The notes under the pieces were generated by a model. That model did not search any database and was not told the DNA's origin. It saw only the letters and a list, made by a program, of their open reading frames with translations. DNA of 61,858 nucleotides, the filler included, from Asterionella formosa (taxonomy: Eukaryota), in assembly GCA_002256025.1 (NCBI GenBank). It is 14 parts of 14 records of this genome, joined end to end, with 100 filler letters (N's around TTAATTAATTAA, not from the genome) between each part and the next. Parts side by side here need not be neighbours in the genome. Positions count along the whole stretch, not along the records: positions 1 to 4,340 come from NKIB01013585.1; 13 more parts are not named here. One strand, 5' to 3'. The first letter of the stretch is position 1. Each line of letters begins with the position of its first letter. Shown here piece after piece: positions 539 through 61,305 of this stretch. Position numbers and translations under genes: made by a program.

Positions 539-970
539 GTAGGTCAATATTTTTGACACCACCCCCTGTATCTTTGTGAATGCTGTTTTGCACATGATAC
601 CGGTAATCACAGAGAGAACTTCAGTGTTTGTATCACCCAGCAACGACGAATCAGCGGCACTCACTATATTTTTCATCTCATTTATCTGTAGGTCGGTCGT
701 TGACATATGAGAAATATTATGGTTGTGAAAGCGTGTACTTACTTCCCTCTACCAAATCGACCTTGGTACGCTTATCGATTTCCAGTAATTCGATGGCTCT
801 GGATGGAACACTCAAAATTCAAGTAGAAATCAAAGTCATTCCATTCGAGATCTACATACTTACAATTGCAAAGGACAAGACACTAATAAAAAATATAACA
901 TATATGATGGAATTAACTGTGCAATACTATGAGCTGAGTGTTGAGTATGGAACGTGTGGTACTGCAATAG

Positions 971-2221
971 CTAAATTTTCTCGTCGCCGTCATATTCAGG
1001 TCTGGCCTTAGTCTCTCTTTGCTTTCGATCAATATCTTGATGAAGTGTACCAACAGAAACAGGAACATTGATACGATCCCCTTCATTTGTTCGCAAGAGT
1101 TTTCTAAGAATAATCCCCGTCGCCTCACAAACAACAACACTACGATGTCTCCCGATTTCGCTACCGGCATAAATGCTCATTCGCAATGGCATGGCATGTC
1201 CAAAGCCTGCCTCAATCGCTTCCTGAAGTGCATCCACAACCTGGGTTGCTATTGATTTGCACAACTGGCGAGTCTCTTCATTCAAGATTGCCCGCTTTAC
1301 ACTTGGATTTCTTCCATCAGGTCGCACAAGCCAATACGGCGTTTCATGCAAGTGGCGGCAATCGACAGGTTGCAAGGGCTGGGCATGGGACCAATTTTTG
1401 ACGGTAGGCGCTCGATGACAGTATCCGAAAGATGTAAGAACAACGTGTATGGGTGCCTTGCCGTGTTGACCTAATCTGTTCTGGAATTGTGGTGACTGGA
1501 TCGATTCTTGCTCAGCTTCACAATCGGCGTCGTCATCCTCCTCCAATTGTTCGTCGACTTTTTTGTTTTTGAAATCCAAGTCTTGCTCTCCGTAGTCAGC
1601 AAGAAGCCTCGATAGAGAAACTTTACAATTTGCTTTAAATTCTTCCAAAGTAGGAGCGGAACGATCTGCTTCCTCAGAGGCATCCTCCACGACTCCGCCC
1701 GAAATTGACAAGTCTGCACCAAACGCGTCCATTGAGGCGAGCAGTGCCATGGTTGCTGTCGAAGTGATGGGCTCATTGATTGGATCATCCTCGGATTTAA
1801 TTTTGACGACGGAGCGTTCCACAGCATATGTGGGAGGTCGAATTTTCATTGGCTTTTGGGCAATAGTTGCCACCACTGCTGGCTTGGACCACGAATTAGC
1901 GCAAAATGTGGATTTCCCTTTCTTGCCTTGTCGAGTCGTTGAGTCTCGTTTCAGCACTAAGTTCATCCCGTTATGTGTTTTTCCATTCAATAGGGATATC
2001 GCCCGACCTGCGTCTTCGCAAACAACTACGTACGAAGGTTTGTTGTTGCTTTCGCCTTGAATTTGTTCAATGTCGCTTGGCGAGATCGAAATTCCAGCTT
2101 GTTCAAAGATTTCCACTAGTTCGTCATCTACATTTACACGAGAACAAAAGTTGCTGACGCAAACTCGTTGTCGTTTTTTGCTTTTTCGAGAAATAAGGAC
2201 CTCAAATCCGTCGTCTGCCAT
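971..2221 (-). CDS. Protein with N-terminal RRM-like domain and C-terminal RapZ(YhbJ)-C-terminal-like domain
   Basis: 416-aa ORF. RRM-like: VCVSNF...ELVEIFEQAG...AGRAISLLNGKTHNGMNLVL. C-terminal motifs VLTSFGY, VDCRHL, DGRNPSV, IYAGSEIGRHRSVVVCE and HQDI match the RapZ CTD pattern (SFGF..., DVRFL, IGCTGGKHRSV, HRD). Confidence 0.75.
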   Translation of the reverse strand: MADDGFEVLISRKSKKRQRVCVSNFCSRVNVDDELVEIFEQAGISISPSDIEQIQGESNNKPSYVVVCEDAGRAISLLNGKTHNGMNLVLKRDSTTRQGKKGKSTFCANSWSKPAVVATIAQKPMKIRPPTYAVERSVVKIKSEDDPINEPITSTATMALLASMDAFGADLSISGGVVEDASEEADRSAPTLEEFKANCKVSLSRLLADYGEQDLDFKNKKVDEQLEEDDDADCEAEQESIQSPQFQNRLGQHGKAPIHVVLTSFGYCHRAPTVKNWSHAQPLQPVDCRHLHETPYWLVRPDGRNPSVKRAILNEETRQLCKSIATQVVDALQEAIEAGFGHAMPLRMSIYAGSEIGRHRSVVVCEATGIILRKLLRTNEGDRINVPVSVGTLHQDIDRKQRETKARPEYDGDEKI

Positions 2222-3336
2222 GGTGAACGAAACAAAACGAGCTTGTTAGTGAATGTTGTGAGATTTGTGTGTGTTCTCGTTGTTTGTCGTGGGCGGGGAA
2301 ATTATCAACAAACAGTGCATGATATTCATGGTTGGCTCTCGGGATCTGGTAGCAGCAAGGCAGACAGACCTACAGGACTGGTAGTCGAAATTCCATAACA
2401 AAACCGAATATACATTTTGGGTCTATTCCGGTACCTGATACTCCTACCTGATGCTGTACCAAGTGAAACGCAGCTGTTCCACATACCGGTACACAGGTAT
2501 ATCAAATCGATCATGATATTGTACCAGGTACCAGGTACCTTTTAGGAGGGAGGACGATGGTTATTCTTTGGTGGTACATCGATACTGTTACCAGGTGCCA
2601 GGTACCTGCAAGTTGCGGTCATTTTGCTTTAACTAACATTTTAATCTGGGATGAAGATAGCTTANNNNNNNNNNNNNNNNNNNNNNNNNNNNNNNNNNNN
2701 NNNNNNNNNNNNNNNNNNNNNNNNNNNNNNNNNNNNNNNNNNNNNNNNNNNNNNNNNNNNNNNNNNNNNNNNNNNNNNNNNNNNNNNNNNNNNNNNNNNN
2801 NNNNNNNNNNNNNNNNNNNNNNNNNNNNNNNNNNNNNNNNNNNNNNNNNNNNNNNNNNNNNNNNNNNNNNNNNNNNNNNNNNACTGTAAAAGCAAAGAAA
2901 TGAAGAAATCTGTGCATCAGCCACCCCTCATACATTCGCTAAAATCTATGAACCGTGGCTGATGCATTCATAGACACAGTCACACAAATGACATTGCTGG
3001 GCACTCCCCCCTAATGCATGCAGTAACTTTCATACATGCGTTCAGTGGACCACCGGTACTCTTGAAAATTCTGGCTAAATAAATTAACTTTGAAAATTAA
3101 TCGGTGGGCGGAGGGAAAACAAAAGAACAAAATCAAATTCGAACAGAAAAAGATTGGAAATTAACCAACGACAACACAAAAATAGGACGAGAATCAGGAG
3201 TCGTTGAGCAAAGTCACAATCGAATCTACTACTTGAACCAATTCTTGTCCCACGCAATCGCTAGGATTTGAAAGTAGTGCGCTCAACGGCTAAGATTCGA
3301 TTTTCTCACAACGACGCATAAAATCGAAACAGAAGA

Positions 3337-4340
3337 ATGAGAAACGCGCACCTTGTCCCTTCCATTGCCGCTGCTGTCCTCTTCCAAGCTCCTGGTGCTG
3401 TAGCATGGGGCAAAGTCGGACACGATATGGTGGCAAACTTGGCGTGGTACCGCCTTTCCAACGAAACTAAAACTATGGTCAAGGAGATTCTGATCCGAGA
3501 GGATGGCTCCTACGGCGATGACGACGAGGCTGGCTCCCCTCTAGCTTCGGTTGCCAACTGGGCGGACAAGGTTCGCTTTACAAAGTTATACCATTGGTCC
3601 ACTCCGCTCCATTACGTCGATGTTCAAGATACTGCAGTTGATGGAGGATGCCCGTGCAAGCGACCTACTGAAGTGTCGCCTTGTTTTTTCATCTATGAAC
3701 GAGACTGCGTGGACGATGTATGCGCGGCCGGAGCGATTGCCAACTACAGCACTCGCTTACTAGATCGTGCTCAACCGCTACTGAGAGGTGCTAGCTTGGA
3801 GTACAACCTTGCTCGAGAAGCGATTGAGTTCTTGACTCATTTCGTTGGCGACATTCACCAGCCCCTTCACTCGTCACGAGTCAGCGATCTTGGGGGAAAT
3901 ACATTTCATGTCTCATTTCTACCGGAAAAGGCGCAGTGGACTGTAGATCGAGATGGATCTCATCAAAAAGGTTGGAATTTGCACTCTGTCTGGGATGACG
4001 GCATCATTGAGCGTGCAATGAATGATTGCTTCAACAATACTCGAGAATATTTTGAAAATGACTTGATAAATGTCATTGAAACTGCGAAAGCGACTGGCGA
4101 CCTAGATTTATGGTTGGCTTGTGCTGATGGTCATGACAAAACATGCACCTCAAAATGGGCCGAGGAAAGTTTTGAAGATGCCTTGAATTGGGCCTATCGA
4201 ACCAGCAACGACGAGGAAGTGGTTGATGGGTCGGTTCTGGATGAACTCTACTATAGGACAAGGCTGCCTGTAGTGAAGCGCAAAATAGCAGCGGCGGGAG
4301 TTCGACTTGCGTATACGTTGGAATTAGTTTTATCAAAGCA
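3337..4340 (+). CDS. S1/P1 nuclease (secreted zinc nuclease); last codons cut by the scaffold end
   Basis: Signal peptide, then the mature N-terminus WGKVGH. Motifs ANWAD, LHYVD, FLTHFVGDIHQPLH, GGN, NLHSVWD, WAEES and AGVRLA are present. Confidence 0.95.
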
Positions 4341-4440
4341 NNNNNNNNNNNNNNNNNNNNNNNNNNNNNNNNNNNNNNNNNNNNTTAATTAATTAANNNN
4401 NNNNNNNNNNNNNNNNNNNNNNNNNNNNNNNNNNNNNNNN
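4341..4440. other. Artificial contig-joining spacer N44-TTAATTAATTAA-N44 (first of 13)
   Basis: Identical 100-nt spacers start at 4341, 8778, 13215, 17652, 22089, 26525, 30957, 35385, 39812, 44224, 48636, 53045 and 57453. TTAATTAATTAA puts stops in all six frames. Plain N gaps inside scaffolds are at 2665-2882 and 37845-38500. Confidence 0.98.
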
Positions 4441-5216
4441 CAAGGAAGAATACCGGTACCAACATGGATTCAAAGGGTAATCAATCAGCAAGTACAGTGT
4501 GCTTGAAATTCATAATAAAATCCCACCCGTCACATCGATGATGGTTGACTGGCATCGCGTTTGAGGACCTGTACCAAGCAAGTTGCTGTAATTTTGCAGA
4601 ACTAAAGATTTAGCTTTTTTTATCCAAGATGAAACTGTTTCTTTGAGCAAAATGACCGCAACTTGTAGGTACCAGGTACCAGGTACCCAACAATAAAGAC
4701 ACATCCTTGGCTGTTCTTACGTGCGTATTCATCGACTTTTAAAAGTAAAAATGTCTGTACCGCTATTTTATTTAGATTCTGGATGCATGTGTACATTCTC
4801 ATGTATAAAAACTGGTACCGGTACACAAAATGTATGGATGTTACCAGGTACTCCCTACCTGGTACCAGGGTACCAATTCAGATCTACTACTACCGGTACA
4901 TACAAGATTCATTCATTTATACTGTAAGAATAGCTGTCGTCCGGTGAAACAGTCATCGGCTGTTGCCTACATAGATACATATCATAAATACCGGCATACC
5001 ACAGTCATAGTTTGGAATAATAGTTGGAGAAACTTGTTCACGAATTGCGAGGGACACACCTTCCATCAGACACATTTGTTGTTGGCAAACACATATTGTT
5101 AGCGGCAAGATTCAACAATTTATTTCATGGTGCTTTTGATTCAGAAGGTATCCAATTGAATCTAACGTAGTCTACTGGTGTACCCTTCGTCCTGTTCAAA
5201 CTTTGATAGATATAGA

Positions 5217-40988: not shown

Positions 40989-41581
40989 GATGAGTGAAAT
41001 TTTGTTTTGAGATTTTGTTGTTGTGGTTGATGCAGATCTTTTTTTGTTTTGATGGTGTTCAAATCGTGAGCAGACTGAAATTTTTGATGTATCTATAAAT
41101 ATACTGGTAGTTTGCGACAAATGCATACCCATCATTTTATTATAAATTGTACCAGTTGTCTACTTTTGTGTTCATGGAGCTACAATTATCAACTTTGAAG
41201 AATACTTGGAATGAAATAGAAGGCGGAAAGGTTTATCCCAGTATGAAAAGGCATGTAATACATATATAGTGCATGGTAAATATAATGCAGCAACCATGTA
41301 ATGTCATCGCACCACCATCTTCTATAAACAACTAACATTTACCTCTATGCTATAACCATGTATTATTAAATTAGTCTACTATTATATAGTGTACAGTACT
41401 GGTATCATGTATGTATCGAAGATTTGAACCGGAGTTGGCGTTTTGCTCAAGAATTTCATTCTCAGATGGAGGATTATTAATTATGTATGTGAGCATCACA
41501 ACAATAATCGCTCGTCCCCAAAACCCTGCATGTATGAATCACGGTATTCATAGACTAATACTACCGGTATCCTCCTTTGCC

Positions 41582-43870
41582 ATGCCGATGAAGGAGCAAG
41601 GAATTCAAGCGCTTCGTGCTCGTTTCAACTCGCATCTCCCCCAATATGAGGTTCTTTGGAGATCTATGCTGACCAAACGAAAAGGGGAAACCTTGAAACG
41701 ACGAGAGCCTCACTTCCTTTTGACAGCAATTGAAACGAAGACCACCGTAACAATCAATGCGAAAAGGCTATACGACGAGGCTTGCGAGGACTGCGAGGAC
41801 TGTGCTCCTCCCACATTCGAAGAAGTTATTATAGACGAGGCATCGCAATGTACTCCTGCTTCGCAGAGAACAGTGATTGCATTCCAGGACTACTGCAGTA
41901 GCAATGACGAGTCGGACGCAACGCAGCCCACAGTGATCCGAATCAATGATTGCCCTTCCATTGTATCCCATGCTTCAACAGTTAGTCCCGATACTAACCA
42001 CAGCGACGCTTACAACGCGATATCCTTTGACTTGTCAAGAATGGGCATTGCTGACCAGGTTCAACCGAAACAATTCGACGCCAATACATTTCGCTTCGGG
42101 GAGACTACACTCAATTCCCGTGACATTAACGAAGCGACAGATGTATATTCTGGAAAGAAAATCGAATTTTCCAACATGAAGACATTTACTCTCAGCGATT
42201 GCGAAGCTGACGAAAGTCAAGCACAGAGTGCGAACAACGCGTGCAATGCTAGCGATGTCAGCATGAACCTCAAAGCGCCTTTGACATGCGAAAGCGACAA
42301 AGGTTCACCAAGAAGTGAGACGTTGAGAGACATCAACGATGAAGAAATCAAATCTGAATCTACAACTTCGTCTGGGAGTACTGTCGTTCGCTTCGAAATA
42401 AATCATGAGGCAGTAGAAGGCACCAATGATGAAGTAACTGAATCTGACGATACGGACTCTTCGGGAAGTACTGTAGTTCGCTTTGACATCCCATGCTGGG
42501 AGAAAATAAATGACAAGGAATCGATTTACCTCACAAAAAAAAGAGACGAGATCGAAGAACTTCCTGCTCACACTTCAAAATCGTCTCACACGCAGGGACT
42601 CCTTGAGATTGTACCGCATACGCCTATTCAAGTCAACAATGACACAATTGTTCCATCAACTCCTGTGAACTCAAAATATTTGGGGAAAGATGAAATATCT
42701 GAGGATTTGGTTGACACCCCATCACCACTGTTGAGAAGGAAAATCGTATCCCAGATGATCGAGGGTGGCGATTTGGTCGATACACCTTCGCCACAGCCGA
42801 ACGTTTTCAAGTCACGAAGGTCCAATAAAATCTGGAGCGAGTCATCAGGGGAAGACGACGACGACGAAACCGATGAATCTTGGCTTGTGCCAGATACTGA
42901 CGAGAAAGGGGGGACAACAAAACTGGAAGAATCTAGCGACGAAGATTTACAATGGGAGGATGAAGCCGATGAATTTCCAGAGGAAAGTATAAGTGGAGAC
43001 GAAGAACCTGATGATTTCATTGTCTTGTCCAGTGACGATGGTAGCGACAGCGATGGCCTCGGGTCCCTTGGAGTAGCATTTACTGAATTGGCGCTCCGGA
43101 AGCCAAAGTCAAAATCTCGAGCAACTCCCGTGTCATTCCGACGAAATCGAGACGCTCTAACAAAGGCTGCTTTCGAGGAATTTAACATGAAGATATTTGC
43201 TGGCTCTCTCACAAGTGTCAAAATCGAGTGGTCTAAAAAACTCCGAACTACAGGCGGTATTACTCGTCTAAAGAGATTGATACAAGTTGGAAAGGATCCC
43301 GTTCATATTGCTTCTATTGATCTATCAGAGAAGGTCCTGGACGAAGAGCACCGCATGCGTTCGACACTCGTTCATGAAATGTGTCATGCCGCTGCCTGGC
43401 TTGTTGACCGCGTTTCGAAACCTGCACATGGTAGGGTTTTCAAGAAATGGGGACGACTGGCCACGAAAAAGACAAGCATTCCGGTGTTAACAACACACGA
43501 CTATGCAATTCAGTACAAGTTTGCTTGGGCCTGCCAAACTCTGAAATGTGGAGCTGTCATTCAACGGCAAAGTCGAAGTGTTGATGTGGCAAAACAAATT
43601 TGCAGTCGATGTAAGGGAAGACTTGTCGAAATCGAAGCTCCGATGAAAGGGATTAGCGTTTCCGACATGGTAAGGACTCCTAAGAAGAAAGCACCTTTGT
43701 CGGGATACAATTTATTTGTAAAGCAGATGTCAAGCAAAGTCAGGGAACAAATGAATGAAAAGCGAATTCTGGAGGGTAGGGCTGATAATATAGTCACGCA
43801 GCCTGAGGTATTAAGAGAATGCGCTAGACTATGGAATGAGAGAAAAAATGCAGAAGGAACTGCCCCCTAA
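41582..43870 (+). CDS. GCNA: GCNA/ACRC-like protein: acidic disordered N-terminus, SprT metalloprotease, zinc motif, HMG-like C-terminus
   Basis: FEEFNMKIF...IEWSKKLRTTGG...LSEKVLD...TLVHEMCHAAAW...HGRVFKKW; C..KC...RQSRSVD...CSRCKGRL; LSGYNLFVK...LRECARLW. Start uncertain (41411-41588). Confidence 0.85.
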   Translation: MPMKEQGIQALRARFNSHLPQYEVLWRSMLTKRKGETLKRREPHFLLTAIETKTTVTINAKRLYDEACEDCEDCAPPTFEEVIIDEASQCTPASQRTVIAFQDYCSSNDESDATQPTVIRINDCPSIVSHASTVSPDTNHSDAYNAISFDLSRMGIADQVQPKQFDANTFRFGETTLNSRDINEATDVYSGKKIEFSNMKTFTLSDCEADESQAQSANNACNASDVSMNLKAPLTCESDKGSPRSETLRDINDEEIKSESTTSSGSTVVRFEINHEAVEGTNDEVTESDDTDSSGSTVVRFDIPCWEKINDKESIYLTKKRDEIEELPAHTSKSSHTQGLLEIVPHTPIQVNNDTIVPSTPVNSKYLGKDEISEDLVDTPSPLLRRKIVSQMIEGGDLVDTPSPQPNVFKSRRSNKIWSESSGEDDDDETDESWLVPDTDEKGGTTKLEESSDEDLQWEDEADEFPEESISGDEEPDDFIVLSSDDGSDSDGLGSLGVAFTELALRKPKSKSRATPVSFRRNRDALTKAAFEEFNMKIFAGSLTSVKIEWSKKLRTTGGITRLKRLIQVGKDPVHIASIDLSEKVLDEEHRMRSTLVHEMCHAAAWLVDRVSKPAHGRVFKKWGRLATKKTSIPVLTTHDYAIQYKFAWACQTLKCGAVIQRQSRSVDVAKQICSRCKGRLVEIEAPMKGISVSDMVRTPKKKAPLSGYNLFVKQMSSKVREQMNEKRILEGRADNIVTQPEVLRECARLWNERKNAEGTAP

Positions 43871-51041: not shown

Positions 51042-52556
51042 ATGACAAGCAACTCGAGCGCTCGTCGCTCCTCTGGAGGATCCCTCCCCGAAGGCGAAAG
51101 GTATGCAAACCATGTTGCGATGAAGTAACCAACACATGCTTGTTTCCATTGCGCCTCACCTTTGTAAGTTTCATCGTCTGAAAGGAGACCTTTGGTTCCC
51201 TTTTCCATGCTTGCACTGGACTTTTGGCGTCCCATGTACACCGCCGCCGCGTTATCCATGCATCGCGTAGTTCAGAGGGCGTGGGACAACTTTCGCTCTA
51301 ACGTTGGATTCATTTCGTCAGTCTTGGGCTTTTTGGGAAATTCCATTGTTGACGCGTCGGTCAAGGAGACACGTGCTCAATGGGTCCTGGCATTGGACAA
51401 ATTGAAGGACTACTTGGACGACTCAGGTATAAAGGACGAGCTAAGAAATGGCTTGAATTCCCGATTCATCGGGAACTTGGCAATTATGGAGAATATACAA
51501 AACGCCTTGTATTCTGATCGACGACTACATTGCGTTGCCGCAGCGCGTCACGGCGTCCCACCAACCCAAGAAGCATATACGTACATGAGATATGCTACAG
51601 CTGCGTATGGTTCGGAAATGATTGCATCTGCATGGTTAGCAACAGACGAAACATTCCGCGCACCAAGTATGGAAACAGTGACCAACCTATTAGCACACAT
51701 TGGTGCTACAAAGGAGGATATCGTGATCATGGATGTAGACTATGGAGAAGATTTGGACTGCCTTCGTCACTTTTGTGTTGTGGATCATTCAAACAAGGCT
51801 GTTGTGTTGTCTATTCGTGGAACATTTTCCATGACGGGAGTCATGGTAGACCTCGTTGGGTTTTGCGATCCATTTTGCGGTGGTGACGCTCATTCTGGCA
51901 TGGCAACCATGGCCATTGCCGTTTGGTCCAAGTCTGGTCCTATCATTATGGAAACATTATCGAAATTCAAAGATTATGAATTCGTTATCACTGGCCATTC
52001 CTTAGGTGCTGGAGTAGCTTGTCTATTGAATATTTTGGTGCACCATGAAAACATTATCCCTCATACCAACAATGTCCGTTGTTTTGCCTTTGCACCACCA
52101 CCAGTTTTTCATCCCATCTCGGCTGCACTTGAAGCCGTTCAGCATACATTTGCCTACGTCCACGAACGCGACATTGTACCCTTTTTGTCAGTCAATGGTA
52201 TCCTCCGATTCTTTTCACTTATGAATGCCATTGACATGTCATGCAGACACTTGTACTTTTGGGAAAAGGCTAGCATTGACTGGAACTTTTCTAAACCCAC
52301 CCCAGCCATGATGGAAGCTGCTCGCAACTCTCATGATGTGGAATTACCAGCTACTGAACGAGCACCAATATTGGTCATCCCTGCCCATGCTGTTGTATGG
52401 CTGAGAAAAAACCAATTCAAGAGCTTCAATCAAAAGGTTTGTGACCCTCACAAGCTTGTACATGTGGGTATGCTTGTCAATCCAGACATGATTACTGATC
52501 ATGGTCCTGCCAAGTATGAAGCAGCCTTTAAGTACCTGAAAGAAGAACAGGACTAG
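51042..52556 (+). CDS. Class 3 lipase (DAG-lipase-like); probable exon 1 51042-51100, intron 51101-51184
   Basis: YMRYATAAYG, VVDH..KAVVLSIRGTFS, AHSGM, ITGHSLGAG nucleophile elbow, CFAFAPPP, DIVPFLS, MITDH. The GTATG...AAG intron joins in frame. Confidence 0.9.
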
Positions 52557-58770: not shown

Positions 58771-60222
58771 AGGCTACTTCACTTCCAATATGGGGGCGTT
58801 CGAACGAACTAGAAGCAACTAGATATAGAATACATAAATAGAATATAGATAGATAATAGAATGCATGTCCCAGGAATTCATTCGTTAAGTCCTATCACTC
58901 TGCTTCAGCTGTCAACAACCTCGCAGATCCACCATTTCCCAAGGTGTAAATCAGGTTTCCGTCAATCATTTGACATGTTGGAACGACCCAGAATGCAAAT
59001 CCATGTTGGATCGAGTCCAATGGTGATGGTTGGCTGTGTTACGAAAATGCAATTCCTAGGTAATTCACGTCTTCTCCCATGTAGCACACTGGCACATCAT
59101 TGCCAGATTTACCGCTATCTTTGTAGCTACGACCTATAATCCGTTTCTACCTGTACTTTCTGACTAACCATTCATACAAGCCATCGCCTGCATTCGTAAA
59201 CAGAGCCAGTGATGCTGTGTGACTGGTGATGGAGTGGAACTTGCTTGGGAGTCCGTCCATACTGGCATTAGACTCCGAGTCGTTACGACCAGAGTACTGG
59301 TACCTGGTACAGATCCCTCCTTCACACATGACTGGTAACCTGGAGGTAGATACTCCGAACAACAAGCAAGTACCGGTAACGGTATTAAGGCGAGACTGAC
59401 CGTATCCTTCCATTCCCGATGTGTCAGGTACCTGGTACCGCTACCATGTACCACGATATAGGCCGCCTGCAACATCATACAGTATGCTGTAATAAATGCA
59501 CCGTTATATGCAGCATTTTAGCAGTACCAGTACCGGTAGCTAGAGAGGATGTTCGGCCAGCAATCGGGCTCCGCCGCCCTGCGACGGCTTGTTGGCTGAT
59601 TTTTGTTTACCTACTGTGTAGCACATAGGAGTATTCTACGTTAGTCGTACCCTTGCGCTTCGCTTTGTCAGGATTGTTTTCAGTGACTTGTTAGTCCCGC
59701 CTGTTGCTGCATTCGTCACTGACAACGTCATGTTTGCGCCACATCCATAGTTCCGTGAAGAAATTTGAGGGCTAAATTTTGGATGACGTGTCCAATTTAT
59801 CACTTGAATCGAAACCCTATGATTGGTTGAAAAAAGAATTGATTTATTCTGTCTCCGCTTCTGTACCTGGTACCTGGTACTCCGTACCATGTACCACAAC
59901 TGACACCTGGGTTTGGTTGTAAATTCTGTTTCCCCTGGGTCCGTTTGTTCAATTGATGAAAGAAAGGAGTCAAATTGATAAGTTCAAGTTGACTACCGGT
60001 ACCATGTACCAGGTACCAGGTAATATTCTTTCTCACTCACCTCGTTTCAGTTTACTGCTTCTGCCTTACTGAGCAAATAGGAGTGTGCACCTAGGTTTGA
60101 GTATTTGCTCTTCGTCTCGTGTCAACTCTCATTTGACCCACCTACTCTTCCGATACCCACATATCTACAATAGTTGTTGCGATCACAACGAAACACCGGT
60201 AGTTGTCACGAACAATTCAGCC

Positions 60223-61305
60223 ATGAAGTATGTCCACACCTCGACCGCCGGTATCACTATCTCAGTAGTCCTGCTTCTCACTTCGCAATCATTATCATCT
60301 TTGGCCTTTTCCGTTCCCCCACCTCTGGTCGAGTTTACTCTAGGCGCCATTGCTGGCGGCGCTGGAGCATTCGCAGCGTACCCCTTCGACTACATCAAAT
60401 CGCAAATGCAGACGGAAGTAGGCAAGGCCAAGTACAAGAATGGATTTGAATGTTTCATGGATACCATCCAACACGAGGGTCCCCTGCAGTTGTATCGTGG
60501 CGCAGCTGTAACAACGATTGGCAATGCACCAGAAAAGGCTCTCAAGTTGCATTCGCATGACATTGCCAAGGCCATGTTACTTGCTCACAGCGGGACTGGT
60601 GTTGGGGGCACCATCTCGTTGGGGAATGAAATATTGGCTGGTGTTATTGCGGGGGTGTGTCAAGTTGTCCTCACGTCACCACTAGAAACAGTCAAGGTGG
60701 CCTTGCAAACATCAGACTTGACCATGAAGGAAGTGATGCAAGAGATTGGTGGCCTCCCTGGTCTGTTCAAGGGATCAGAAGCGTGCATTGCTCGGGATGT
60801 TGTCTTTAATGCCATTTTGTTTCCTGTCTATAGTCATTTACGAGTTGATATGCCAGATTACATGGCAGGGTCGATGGCAGGAGTCGCGGCCACCTTTACG
60901 GCCACTCCAACGGATGTTGTCAAGACACGAATTCTCAGTCAAGATGCCTGTGCCAGACTGCGGCGAACTCGAAATGATGCGACTACTTTAACTACTGTTG
61001 CTGCTACAACACTGGTGTTCGCCTCCTCCTCCCAACCAAGGCTTACAACAGCCACTGCCATGGCGGCAACGAAAACGGACAATGCAGAGGGAGACGTGTA
61101 TAGCAGCAAGTATGAAGGTGAGAACGACTACTTATCGGATAGAAACCCATTTGTTGTGGCGTACAAACTTGCAGAGAAGGAAGGACGTATGGTACTCTTT
61201 AGCGGAGTGTTGGAGCGATGCGTAGGGTCCATTCCAAGATTTGGTTTGACTCTTTCGCTGCATGACGCATTAAAAACTATGGCACTACATCATCATTGGA
61301 TATAG
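60223..61305 (+). CDS. Tandem paralog: intronless citrin-like carrier with signal peptide
   Basis: MKYVHTSTAGITISVVLLLTSQSLSSLA|FSVP; YPFDYIKSQMQ, LYRG...GNAPEKALKL, SPLETVK, TPTDVVKTRI, ERCVGSIPRFGLTL. Confidence 0.9.
   Translation: MKYVHTSTAGITISVVLLLTSQSLSSLAFSVPPPLVEFTLGAIAGGAGAFAAYPFDYIKSQMQTEVGKAKYKNGFECFMDTIQHEGPLQLYRGAAVTTIGNAPEKALKLHSHDIAKAMLLAHSGTGVGGTISLGNEILAGVIAGVCQVVLTSPLETVKVALQTSDLTMKEVMQEIGGLPGLFKGSEACIARDVVFNAILFPVYSHLRVDMPDYMAGSMAGVAATFTATPTDVVKTRILSQDACARLRRTRNDATTLTTVAATTLVFASSSQPRLTTATAMAATKTDNAEGDVYSSKYEGENDYLSDRNPFVVAYKLAEKEGRMVLFSGVLERCVGSIPRFGLTLSLHDALKTMALHHHWI

Follow-up and report, generated by a model that had tools for sequence, protein, structure and literature searches.

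A diatom and bolidophyte protein family joining an RRM fold to a RapZ C-terminal-type domain, represented by a gene of Asterionella formosa

RapZ and the Asterionella formosa Gene

Work on RapZ has so far been confined to bacteria, in which the protein regulates the synthesis of cell-envelope precursors. Here, we describe a gene of the diatom Asterionella formosa, the predicted product of which combines an RNA recognition motif (RRM) fold, a disordered linker and a domain of the RapZ C-terminal type. The gene lies within a 61,858-nucleotide stretch of DNA (GenBank assembly GCA_002256025.1; 14 parts joined by filler), hereafter the window. According to three reports, the isolated C-terminal domain of Escherichia coli RapZ (YhbJ; PDB 5O5S, 5O5O, 5O5Q, 8B0I and 8B0J) binds RNA (PMC5737377, PMC7073468, PMC9841335) as well as glucosamine-6-phosphate (GlcN6P), a ligand that competes with the small RNA (PMC7073468, PMC9841335). 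The anion pocket of this domain is made up of H190, T248, G249, H252 and R253, with C247 beside them, and is positioned on RNA backbone phosphates in the RapZ–GlmZ complex (PMC5737377, PMC9841335); sulphate or malonate is held there by backbone amides and an arginine (PMC5737377). Function is abolished in the H190A, G249W, R253A, T248D, C247A, C247S and K170A variants (PMC5737377, PMC9841335).

971..2221, minus strand: complete coding sequence of 416 amino acids, intron-less, stop codon included (open reading frame list and translation)

The C-terminal domains of E. coli RapZ and of the diatom and bolidophyte family have the SFG, D..R and G.HRSV signatures in common, together with the tail H-R-x-x-E/D-R, and the His–Arg pair of the anion pocket is invariant in the family. 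Unlike E. coli RapZ, the protein carries an RRM and a long linker in place of the kinase-like N-terminal domain; identity between the two is about 20%, and the scores against Pfam PF22740 are 27 versus 163 bits. The family further departs from E. coli RapZ in having Ser for Cys247, Glu/Asp for Thr248, a variable or bulky residue for Gly249, a variable position for His190, and a groove loop shortened by three residues. The partners of E. coli RapZ, namely GlmY/GlmZ, RNase E and QseE/F, are bacterial and, to our knowledge, restricted to bacteria.

The data are best read as describing a protein family of diatoms and bolidophytes alone, in which an RRM fold and a disordered linker are combined with a RapZ C-terminal-type phosphate cradle, the kinase-like domain being absent. 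That the cradle domain, the RRM and the peptide motifs together make a putative RNA-binding adaptor or regulator is a proposal to which we give an even chance. The RNA- and ligand-binding half of RapZ thus persists in a major eukaryotic algal group with the kinase-like half gone, Cys changed to Ser family-wide and an RRM fused to it. Beside bacterial kinase fusions and possible fungal forms, this amounts to a natural experiment on the stand-alone role of the RapZ C-terminal domain (RapZ_C). Diatom biology gains from it a putative RNA-binding protein that is lineage-defining, expressed and previously unstudied, with clear targets for point mutation (S354, H359, R360 and W111).

Family, Range and Phylogeny

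When 1.84 billion representatives were scanned exhaustively with phmmer, 161 clusters (50% identity) were obtained at E-values ≤1e-3, 142 at ≤1e-10 and 80 at ≤1e-30. The relatives entered a 28-sequence alignment (7 of 34 matches, a near-identical copy and fragments, were left out) and a set of 98 further sequences that were scanned for domains (drawn from 137 further representatives, 39 of which, mostly fragments, were left out); unless stated otherwise, conservation counts given below refer to a 180-row family alignment. Members carrying an organism name, a minority of the family on which its taxonomic range rests, come from 12 diatom taxa and three bolidophytes (Triparma) and from nothing else. 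The diatoms are Seminavis, Thalassiosira oceanica, Fistulifera, two Nitzschia, Fragilaria crotonensis, Leptocylindrus, Amphora, Mediolabrus, Bacillariaceae sp., Skeletonema potamos and Coscinodiscus wailesii. This range agrees with the eukaryotic, stramenopile host assumed in an initial annotation that had been made from the sequence alone. When a profile of the C-terminal domain was used as the query, 543 proteins were retrieved, and the best 120 of the 543 all belong to the family.

Diatoms and bolidophytes are sister groups. The entire RRM–linker–RapZ_C architecture is present in the Triparma proteins, and therefore the fusion is older than the split between the two. In a quick maximum-likelihood tree, 36 eukaryotic C-terminal domains (22 random members without an organism name, 13 named ones and the window protein) and 37 bacterial ones (36 of 76 open reading frames, plus E. 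coli) were separated by one branch with an SH-aLRT (Shimodaira–Hasegawa-like approximate likelihood ratio test) value of 100. The bacterial relatives had been seeded by the pattern G[RK]HRSVV[VL][CAV]E, and the excess of Acidimicrobiia and other Actinomycetota among them is a sampling effect; because sampling followed that pattern, no donor is deduced from the tree. One RapZ in that sample, from a 1872-nt contig (L005) of a metagenome-assembled genome labelled Burkholderiales, groups with Acidimicrobiia (SH-aLRT 88) and may be mis-binned.

Members of the family carry the automatic database labels ‘RRM domain-containing protein’, ‘RapZ C-terminal domain-containing’ and ‘RNase adaptor protein for sRNA GlmZ degradation’, the last of which is misleading. 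No publication describing a eukaryotic RapZ-type protein was found in a literature search, and searches with orthologue identifiers also gave none, in line with the initial view of the architecture as uncharacterised.

RapZ_C is a movable module, and diatoms and bolidophytes have it in the form of the RRM fusion. In one bacterial instance (locus L087, positions 466–2636, in the Terriglobia metagenome-assembled genome G003), a 475-residue protein combines an APH-type, AmgK-like kinase domain (residues 51–250) with PapZ_C (residues 346–470; 118.7 bits); its gene overlaps the start of a nucleotidyltransferase gene, and a canonical RapZ (L085) is encoded in the same genome. Like the diatom family, this fusion has RapZ_C without the RapZ P-loop domain; unlike it, the fusion has a sugar kinase as the partner domain, a Cys-containing loop (GCTGGEHRSV) and a bacterial operon context.

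Residues 250–416 of the window protein were also compared with the ESM Atlas, in which the nearest clusters (scores 0.95, 0.92 and 0.91) are ‘RapZ C-terminal domain-containing proteins’ of 189–257 residues. These clusters are 71–100% eukaryotic, with Ascomycota the commonest group, and PF22740 is found on 37–90% of their members. Known from cluster descriptions only, the Ascomycota candidates would be eukaryotic forms of RapZ_C with neither the P-loop domain nor an RRM, and they hint at stand-alone RapZ_C proteins in fungi. No fungal sequence was present among the best 120 of the 543 profile matches (profile A2) or among the 30 matches of a shorter C-terminal profile meant to exclude full-length diatom proteins (profile A3), all of which belong to the diatom family.

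The RapZ C-Terminal-Type Domain

1004..1474, minus strand: RapZ C-terminal-type domain, residues 250–406

Residues 259–373 match PapZ_C (Pfam PF22740) with an E-value of 4.9e-6 and 27.2 bits, a narrow pass over the gathering score of 27, and the match covers model positions 2–107 of 121; for comparison, E. coli RapZ reaches 163.4 bits with this model. With the NCBIfam RapZ/YvcJ equivalog NF003828, only the C-terminal part is matched (20.5 bits; E-value, 2.8e-4), far from the cut-off of 244 bits. Comparison of the 28-sequence family profile with E. coli RapZ by hhalign gave a probability of 95.6% and an E-value of 1.1e-8 over RapZ residues 158–283, i.e., over the whole of its C-terminal domain. 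When the C-terminal 169 residues were searched against the PDB as a single sequence, RapZ was not found, the best matches (E-value, 1.2) being unrelated proteins. The homology to the RapZ C-terminal domain is therefore detectable only by profile or structure. In the AlphaFold2 model, residues 256–406 have predicted local distance difference test (pLDDT) values above 90, and the top PDB matches of the model in Foldseek are RapZ entries (E-value, 6.2e-6; template modelling score 0.72, normalised to 5o5s). The predicted fold is the same as that of the solved RapZ C-terminal domain, and the fold matches agree with what PMC5737377 reports for RapZ itself.

The domain is a constant feature of the family: PapZ_C was found in 28/28 aligned relatives at E-values ≤1, and in 93 of the 98 others at ≤0.01. 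A P-loop domain gave no Pfam match either in the protein (E-value ≤10) or in the 98 relatives (E-value ≤0.01). Both the RapZ-like assignment of the C-terminal half and the absence of the P-loop domain had been proposed in the initial annotation, and the motifs quoted there are all present (SFGY at residues 264–267, DCRHL at 287–291, DGR at 302–304, GSEIGRHRSV at 353–362 and H394-x-D396). Of the residues that are invariant in the bacterial domain, nearly all are retained (SFG, P, D..R, G, G.HRSV, E and H), K309 and R310 are almost invariant, and the segment preceding the domain has the consensus L-x-x-x-G-K-A-P-I-H-V. The net charge of the domain is +6 in the window protein, with a family median of +3. 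RapZ self-associates through its C-terminal domain as a dimer of dimers; for the diatom domain, modelling of a homodimer gave a score of 0.00 in a run made without controls and without the family alignment as input, a value that speaks neither for nor against self-association.

The Pocket Loop and the C-Terminal Tail

1136..1165, minus strand: pocket loop GSEIGRHRSV, residues 353–362, counterpart of E. coli G246-C-T-G-G-K-H-R-S-V255 by profile alignment
1016..1063, minus strand: C-terminal tail motif PVSVGTLHQDIDRKQR, residues 387–402, corresponding to the basic tail with which RapZ binds RNA

The pocket loop lies between the end of a predicted strand (residues 346–354) and the start of a predicted helix (360–378). 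In bacterial relatives it reads GCTGG[RK]HRSV in 80/80 sequences, versus G-S-[ED]-x-G-[RK]-H-R-S-V in the diatom and bolidophyte family. The replacement of the loop Cys by Ser, recognised from the start in the window protein, is a property of the entire family: Ser occupies this position in 209/210 loops found by pattern, 20/20 found by a looser pattern, 3/3 Triparma sequences and 180/180 aligned rows. The residues S354, G357, H359 and R360 are each found in 180/180 rows. Position 355 is Glu or Asp in 154/180, while position 356 varies, bulky residues being frequent there (Tyr in 63 of the 180 rows; Ile in the window protein). The counterpart of H190 is His in 64/180 rows and Tyr (Y296) in the window protein, and that of K170 is Lys, Arg or His in 101/180 and Cys in the window protein.

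Compared with the RapZ set of H190, C247, T248, G249, H252 and R253, the window protein thus keeps only H252 and R253 (H359 and R360) and has the substitutions C247 to S354, T248 to E355, G249 to I356 and H190 to Y296. Judged from the aligned residues, the His–Arg core is kept, and three pocket positions carry changes that inactivate E. coli RapZ.

The tail has the family consensus P-V-S-V-G-T-R-H-R-D-[VI]-[DE]-R, which resembles the HRD[IVL][DE]R ending of actinobacterial RapZ. H394 is found in 179/180 rows, R395 in 151/180 (Gln in the window protein), and position 393 is Arg in 93/180 (Leu in the window protein).

The RRM Domain and the Linker

1928..2185, minus strand: RRM-fold domain, residues 13–98
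2144–2167, minus strand: position of ribonucleoprotein motif 2 (RNP2), RVCVSNFC, degenerate here
2018–2044, minus strand: position of ribonucleoprotein motif 1 (RNP1), NKPSYVVVC, degenerate here
1874..1927, minus strand: basic stretch and invariant Trp motif, residues 99–116, with the core F106-x-x-x-x-W111-S-K-P114 at 1880–1906
1724..1774, minus strand: conserved linker helix (predicted) rich in Ala/Ser/Thr, residues 150–166, consensus IASTAAMxLLxS
1568..1624, minus strand: acidic conserved motif KVSLSRLLADYGEQDLDFK, residues 200–218

Residues 13–98 form, in the predicted model, the b1-a1-b2-b3-a2-b4 fold of an RRM. The family profile has as its PDB matches RRM proteins, namely plastid ribosomal protein cS22 (E-value, 2.3e-14), PABP (7e-7) and U2AF65 (2e-5). 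The window protein has no match to Pfam RRM_1 (PF00076; gathering score 20.7 bits) at E-values ≤10, and the model was found in 8 of the 28 aligned relatives at ≤1 and in 6 of the 98 others at ≤0.01, three of these over the gathering score. The b-a-b-b-a-b fold is shared with canonical RRM proteins (cS22, PABP, U2AF65 and Prp24), to which the family is related with profile E-values of 2.3e-14 to 2e-5, as are an RNP2-like consensus R-[LVI]-[YF]-[IV]-G-N-L-P and an LNG...G..L.V segment. Unlike in canonical RRMs, RNP1 is degenerate throughout the family (K-S-C-[HFY]-A-[LF]-V-x-C). Among 134 ungapped rows, the RNP2 aromatic is Tyr or Phe in 118, and position 3 of RNP1 is His, Phe or Tyr in 98; the four nearest relatives of the window copy are similar to it at the RNP aromatic positions.

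The N-terminal domain of the window protein is thus an RRM by fold that is degenerate at the RNA-contacting positions. Of the N-terminal RRM named in the initial annotation, the part that stands is the one resting on the predicted fold and the family profile, and the part that does not is the one concerning the RRM_1 profile and the RNP aromatics of the window copy. Since the canonical RNA-contacting aromatics are absent from its RRM, the label ‘RNA regulator’ is weaker for the window copy than for the family.

The linker of about 160 residues is predicted to be disordered; it is basic first (net charge of +6 over residues 99–146) and then acidic (25 Asp/Glu versus 9 Lys/Arg over residues 147–255, as the early description of an acidic linker had it), and contains three highly conserved short motifs. 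The first, with the family form F-x(1-4)-W-[SA]-[KR]-P, follows the basic run in a stretch predicted to be disordered; W111 is present in 173/173 ungapped rows, P114 in 165 and F106 in 152. The second is the predicted helix listed above. The third, acidic motif has the consensus L-S-x-L-[LM]-A-[DE]-[YF]-G-E-x-D-x-[DN]-[WFY], with L206 in 175, G211 in 177, D214 in 166 and an aromatic residue at 217 in 173 of the 180 rows. Co-folded with the C-terminal domain, the acidic motif forms two short helices with pLDDT values of 81–86, and the intervening loop stays below 50; because of these values on either side of a disordered loop, the model suggests that the motif probably docks onto the C-terminal domain.

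The Gene and Its Transcript

876..2241, minus strand: approximate span of RNA-library contigs placed on the window, an mRNA-sized unit

The reading frame, given exactly in the initial annotation, is preceded by an in-frame stop nine codons upstream of the ATG, and its N-terminus, MADDGFE, is a start common to the protein and its relatives in the family alignment. The stretch is contained wholly or partly in 12 runs recorded as RNA. Contigs from four of the runs, belonging to three studies, were compared; strand, expression level and exact ends are not readable from such contigs, and RNA libraries may contain DNA. A single 1329-nt contig from a poly-A library (run X5) corresponds to 897–2225, and a single 1298-nt contig from run X4 to 876–2180. 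Run X1 gave contigs for 656–2030 and 2001–2241, and run X7, from a relative with 45 differing letters, one for 917–2417. The reading frame is tightly bracketed by contig ends in 3/3 RNA studies. No contig joint falls within it in any of the four runs, and both halves of the protein are found on the same contigs; therefore, there is no intron, and the RRM and C-terminal halves, which might have proved to be separate transcripts, are on a single one. The gene is real and expressed as one unit. A short X1 contig that folds back at 2241 looks like an assembly artefact.

Compared with an RNA contig of a related strain, the gene shows at least 33 codon changes (20 nonsynonymous and 13 synonymous among the 33 listed), which are too few for measuring selection. 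A signal-peptide-like hydrophobic stretch was not found when the N-terminus was read by sequence, which suggests a cytosolic or nuclear location of the protein.

Proposed Function and Alternatives

If the protein is an RNA-binding adaptor or regulator, its C-terminal domain would hold a phosphate group through the invariant His–Arg pair together with the backbone of the loop and the basic tail. The phosphate would most likely belong to the backbone of a structured RNA, as is the case for the RapZ domain with GlmZ stem-loops. To this, the RRM of most family members would add contacts to single-stranded RNA, while the Trp motif would recruit partners, and the acidic motif may either recruit partners as well or fold back onto the C-terminal domain. 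In the subclade of the window protein, the N-terminal domain may serve mainly for protein contacts, because canonical residues for RNA contact have disappeared from both the RRM and the tail.

Several observations weigh against this proposal. The family mostly has an acidic residue in the place of T248, and the T248D change costs the E. coli protein its RNA binding; in the place of G249 the family often has a bulky residue, and E. coli G249W is inactive; the C247 position is Ser, and E. coli C247S is inactive (PMC9841335). As these three equivalents match inactivating mutations, the RapZ mode of holding RNA may not apply. In the window protein, Cys stands at the counterpart of K170, and in the profile alignment three residues are missing from the groove-reading loop, as are the counterparts of K194 and R196. 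The three canonical aromatic positions of its RRM are taken by Cys21, Ser63 and Val65, and two positions of its tail that are mostly Arg in the family are Leu393 and Gln395. Lastly, 20 of the 33 codon changes listed against the related strain alter the residue, and the RRM region is the most changed.

Among the alternatives, the idea that the C-terminal domain senses GlcN6P or a related sugar phosphate, with the ligand controlling whether the RRM or the C-terminal domain binds RNA and so linking amino-sugar or chitin metabolism to RNA fate, is unlikely, although the most probable of them. It was suggested together with the initial annotation and draws on the GlcN6P binding and RNA competition of the isolated E. 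coli domain described above, on the invariance of H359 and R360, and on the one bacterial genome in which a P-loop-less RapZ_C is fused to an APH-type sugar kinase beside a nucleotidyltransferase. Three of the six pocket positions, however, carry changes of a kind that makes E. coli RapZ inactive, and the GlcN6P site of RapZ itself is still termed ‘uncharacterized’ in PMC9841335. Moreover, the family is found in every sampled diatom lineage, beyond the producers of chitin fibres. Nothing in the present data, gene context and expression included, ties the gene to GlcN6P, hexosamine or chitin metabolism, and this putative link is not favoured.

A different role for the same loop is conceivable but improbable, namely that of a phosphate reader of the pseudophosphatase type, in which the Ser loop would bind a terminal phosphate without turnover (a 5′-phosphorylated or triphosphorylated RNA end, or a phosphoprotein), and the RRM and linker motifs would provide a second contact. 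Cys-based C-X5-R phosphatases and pseudophosphatases (DUSPs, PIR1, baculovirus RNA 5′-phosphatase and STYX) make up 19 of the 50 rows of the fold search and have in common with the window protein the pattern of an anion-cradling [C/S]-X5-R-S loop at a strand-to-helix junction. The E. coli loop G-C247-T-G-G-K-H-R253-S254 occupies the same strand-to-helix position and fits C-X5-R-[ST], which we take to be the signature of Cys-based phosphatases; bacterial RapZ, unlike the diatom family, has the Cys of this signature. Phosphatases with Cys changed to Ser still hold substrate, and the family has an invariant Ser at this position, not just any small residue. The way in which the RapZ loop amides and Arg bind sulphate or malonate (PMC5737377) points in the same direction, as does the remark of the authors of PMC9841335 that C247 may be a catalytic thiol and that they saw a ‘chemically transformed’ ligand. 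On the other side, Ser354 replaces the nucleophilic Cys of the phosphatases (S-X5-R-S), and a general-acid loop was not identified in the window protein. The RapZ literature searched makes no link to phosphatases, the word ‘phosphatase’ occurring 0 times in PMC9841335, and no phosphatase activity of RapZ is reported in the RapZ texts consulted.

In its widest form, to which we likewise attach a low probability, the RapZ C-terminal domain would be a phosphatase-type C-X5-R-S cradle, the Cys-to-Ser form of which became fixed in diatoms and bolidophytes, was tethered to an RRM, and reads a terminal phosphate (an RNA 5′ end or a metabolite), coupling it to RNA fate. If true, the family would be an RNA-tethered eukaryotic pseudo-enzyme sensor with no studied counterpart, and the mechanism of bacterial RapZ would have to be reinterpreted.

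Rather improbable as well is a protein-interaction scaffold, in which a pseudo-RRM (e.g., one like a U2AF-homology motif) would bind the Trp motif or a partner peptide, within or between molecules, and the C-terminal domain would bind a protein partner. The window copy is without all three canonical RNP aromatics, and the linker motifs are more conserved than the RRM. A basic run precedes the invariant Trp within a disordered stretch rich in Gly and Ser, an arrangement that resembles Trp-based peptide ligands; more speculatively, the linker motifs might be PAM2-like or resemble U2AF ligands. RapZ itself contacts proteins, i.e., RNase E and QseE/QseF (PMC7073468 and PMC9841335). Most family members, however, keep the RNP2 and RNP1 aromatics or His counted above (118/134 and 98/134), and RNA-binding RRMs are the best matches of the family profile.

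An active enzyme, with Ser354, His359 and Glu355 as a putative new catalytic centre for a phosphorylated sugar or RNA end, is very improbable. A single loop does bring together an invariant Ser, His and Arg with a near-invariant Glu/Asp, and PMC9841335 hints that the pocket of E. coli RapZ may be chemically active; nevertheless, position 355 is non-acidic in 26/180 rows, and the candidate centre is derived purely from residue identity.

Contamination by bacterial DNA, a chimera due to mis-assembly or read-through of two genes can be dismissed as having next to no likelihood, for although the window contains runs of N, i.e., scaffold, an artefact of this kind is contradicted by the single unbroken reading frame, the poly-A library contig spanning 897–2225, the same architecture in the 12 named diatom taxa and three Triparma, the eukaryotic character of other window genes (e.g., S1/P1 nuclease and mitochondrial carrier) and the eukaryotic clade separate from the bacterial domains in the tree.

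Surroundings in the Window

Runs of N near the gene, from 2665 to about 2890 and at about 4340–4390, leave its reading frame untouched. An S1/P1 nuclease gene (PF02265; E-value, 4e-56) is located at 3337–4392 on the plus strand, and its 3′ end enters a run of N. At 2598–2640, many unrelated RNA contigs of all four runs pile up to a summed depth of at most 2634, with loose ends at about 2600–2608. The flanks of this pile-up (also 2520–2610) are rich in GGTACC/CCAGGTACC, and similar translated stretches are found near 4510–4930; it is probably a dispersed repeat or the end of a mobile element.

Five more large open reading frames of the window gave no Pfam match at E-values ≤1e-4. Others, all on the plus strand, encode an SprT-like protein (41411–43870), a class 3 lipase (51192–52556) and a mitochondrial carrier (60085–61305), which fits eukaryotic nuclear DNA.

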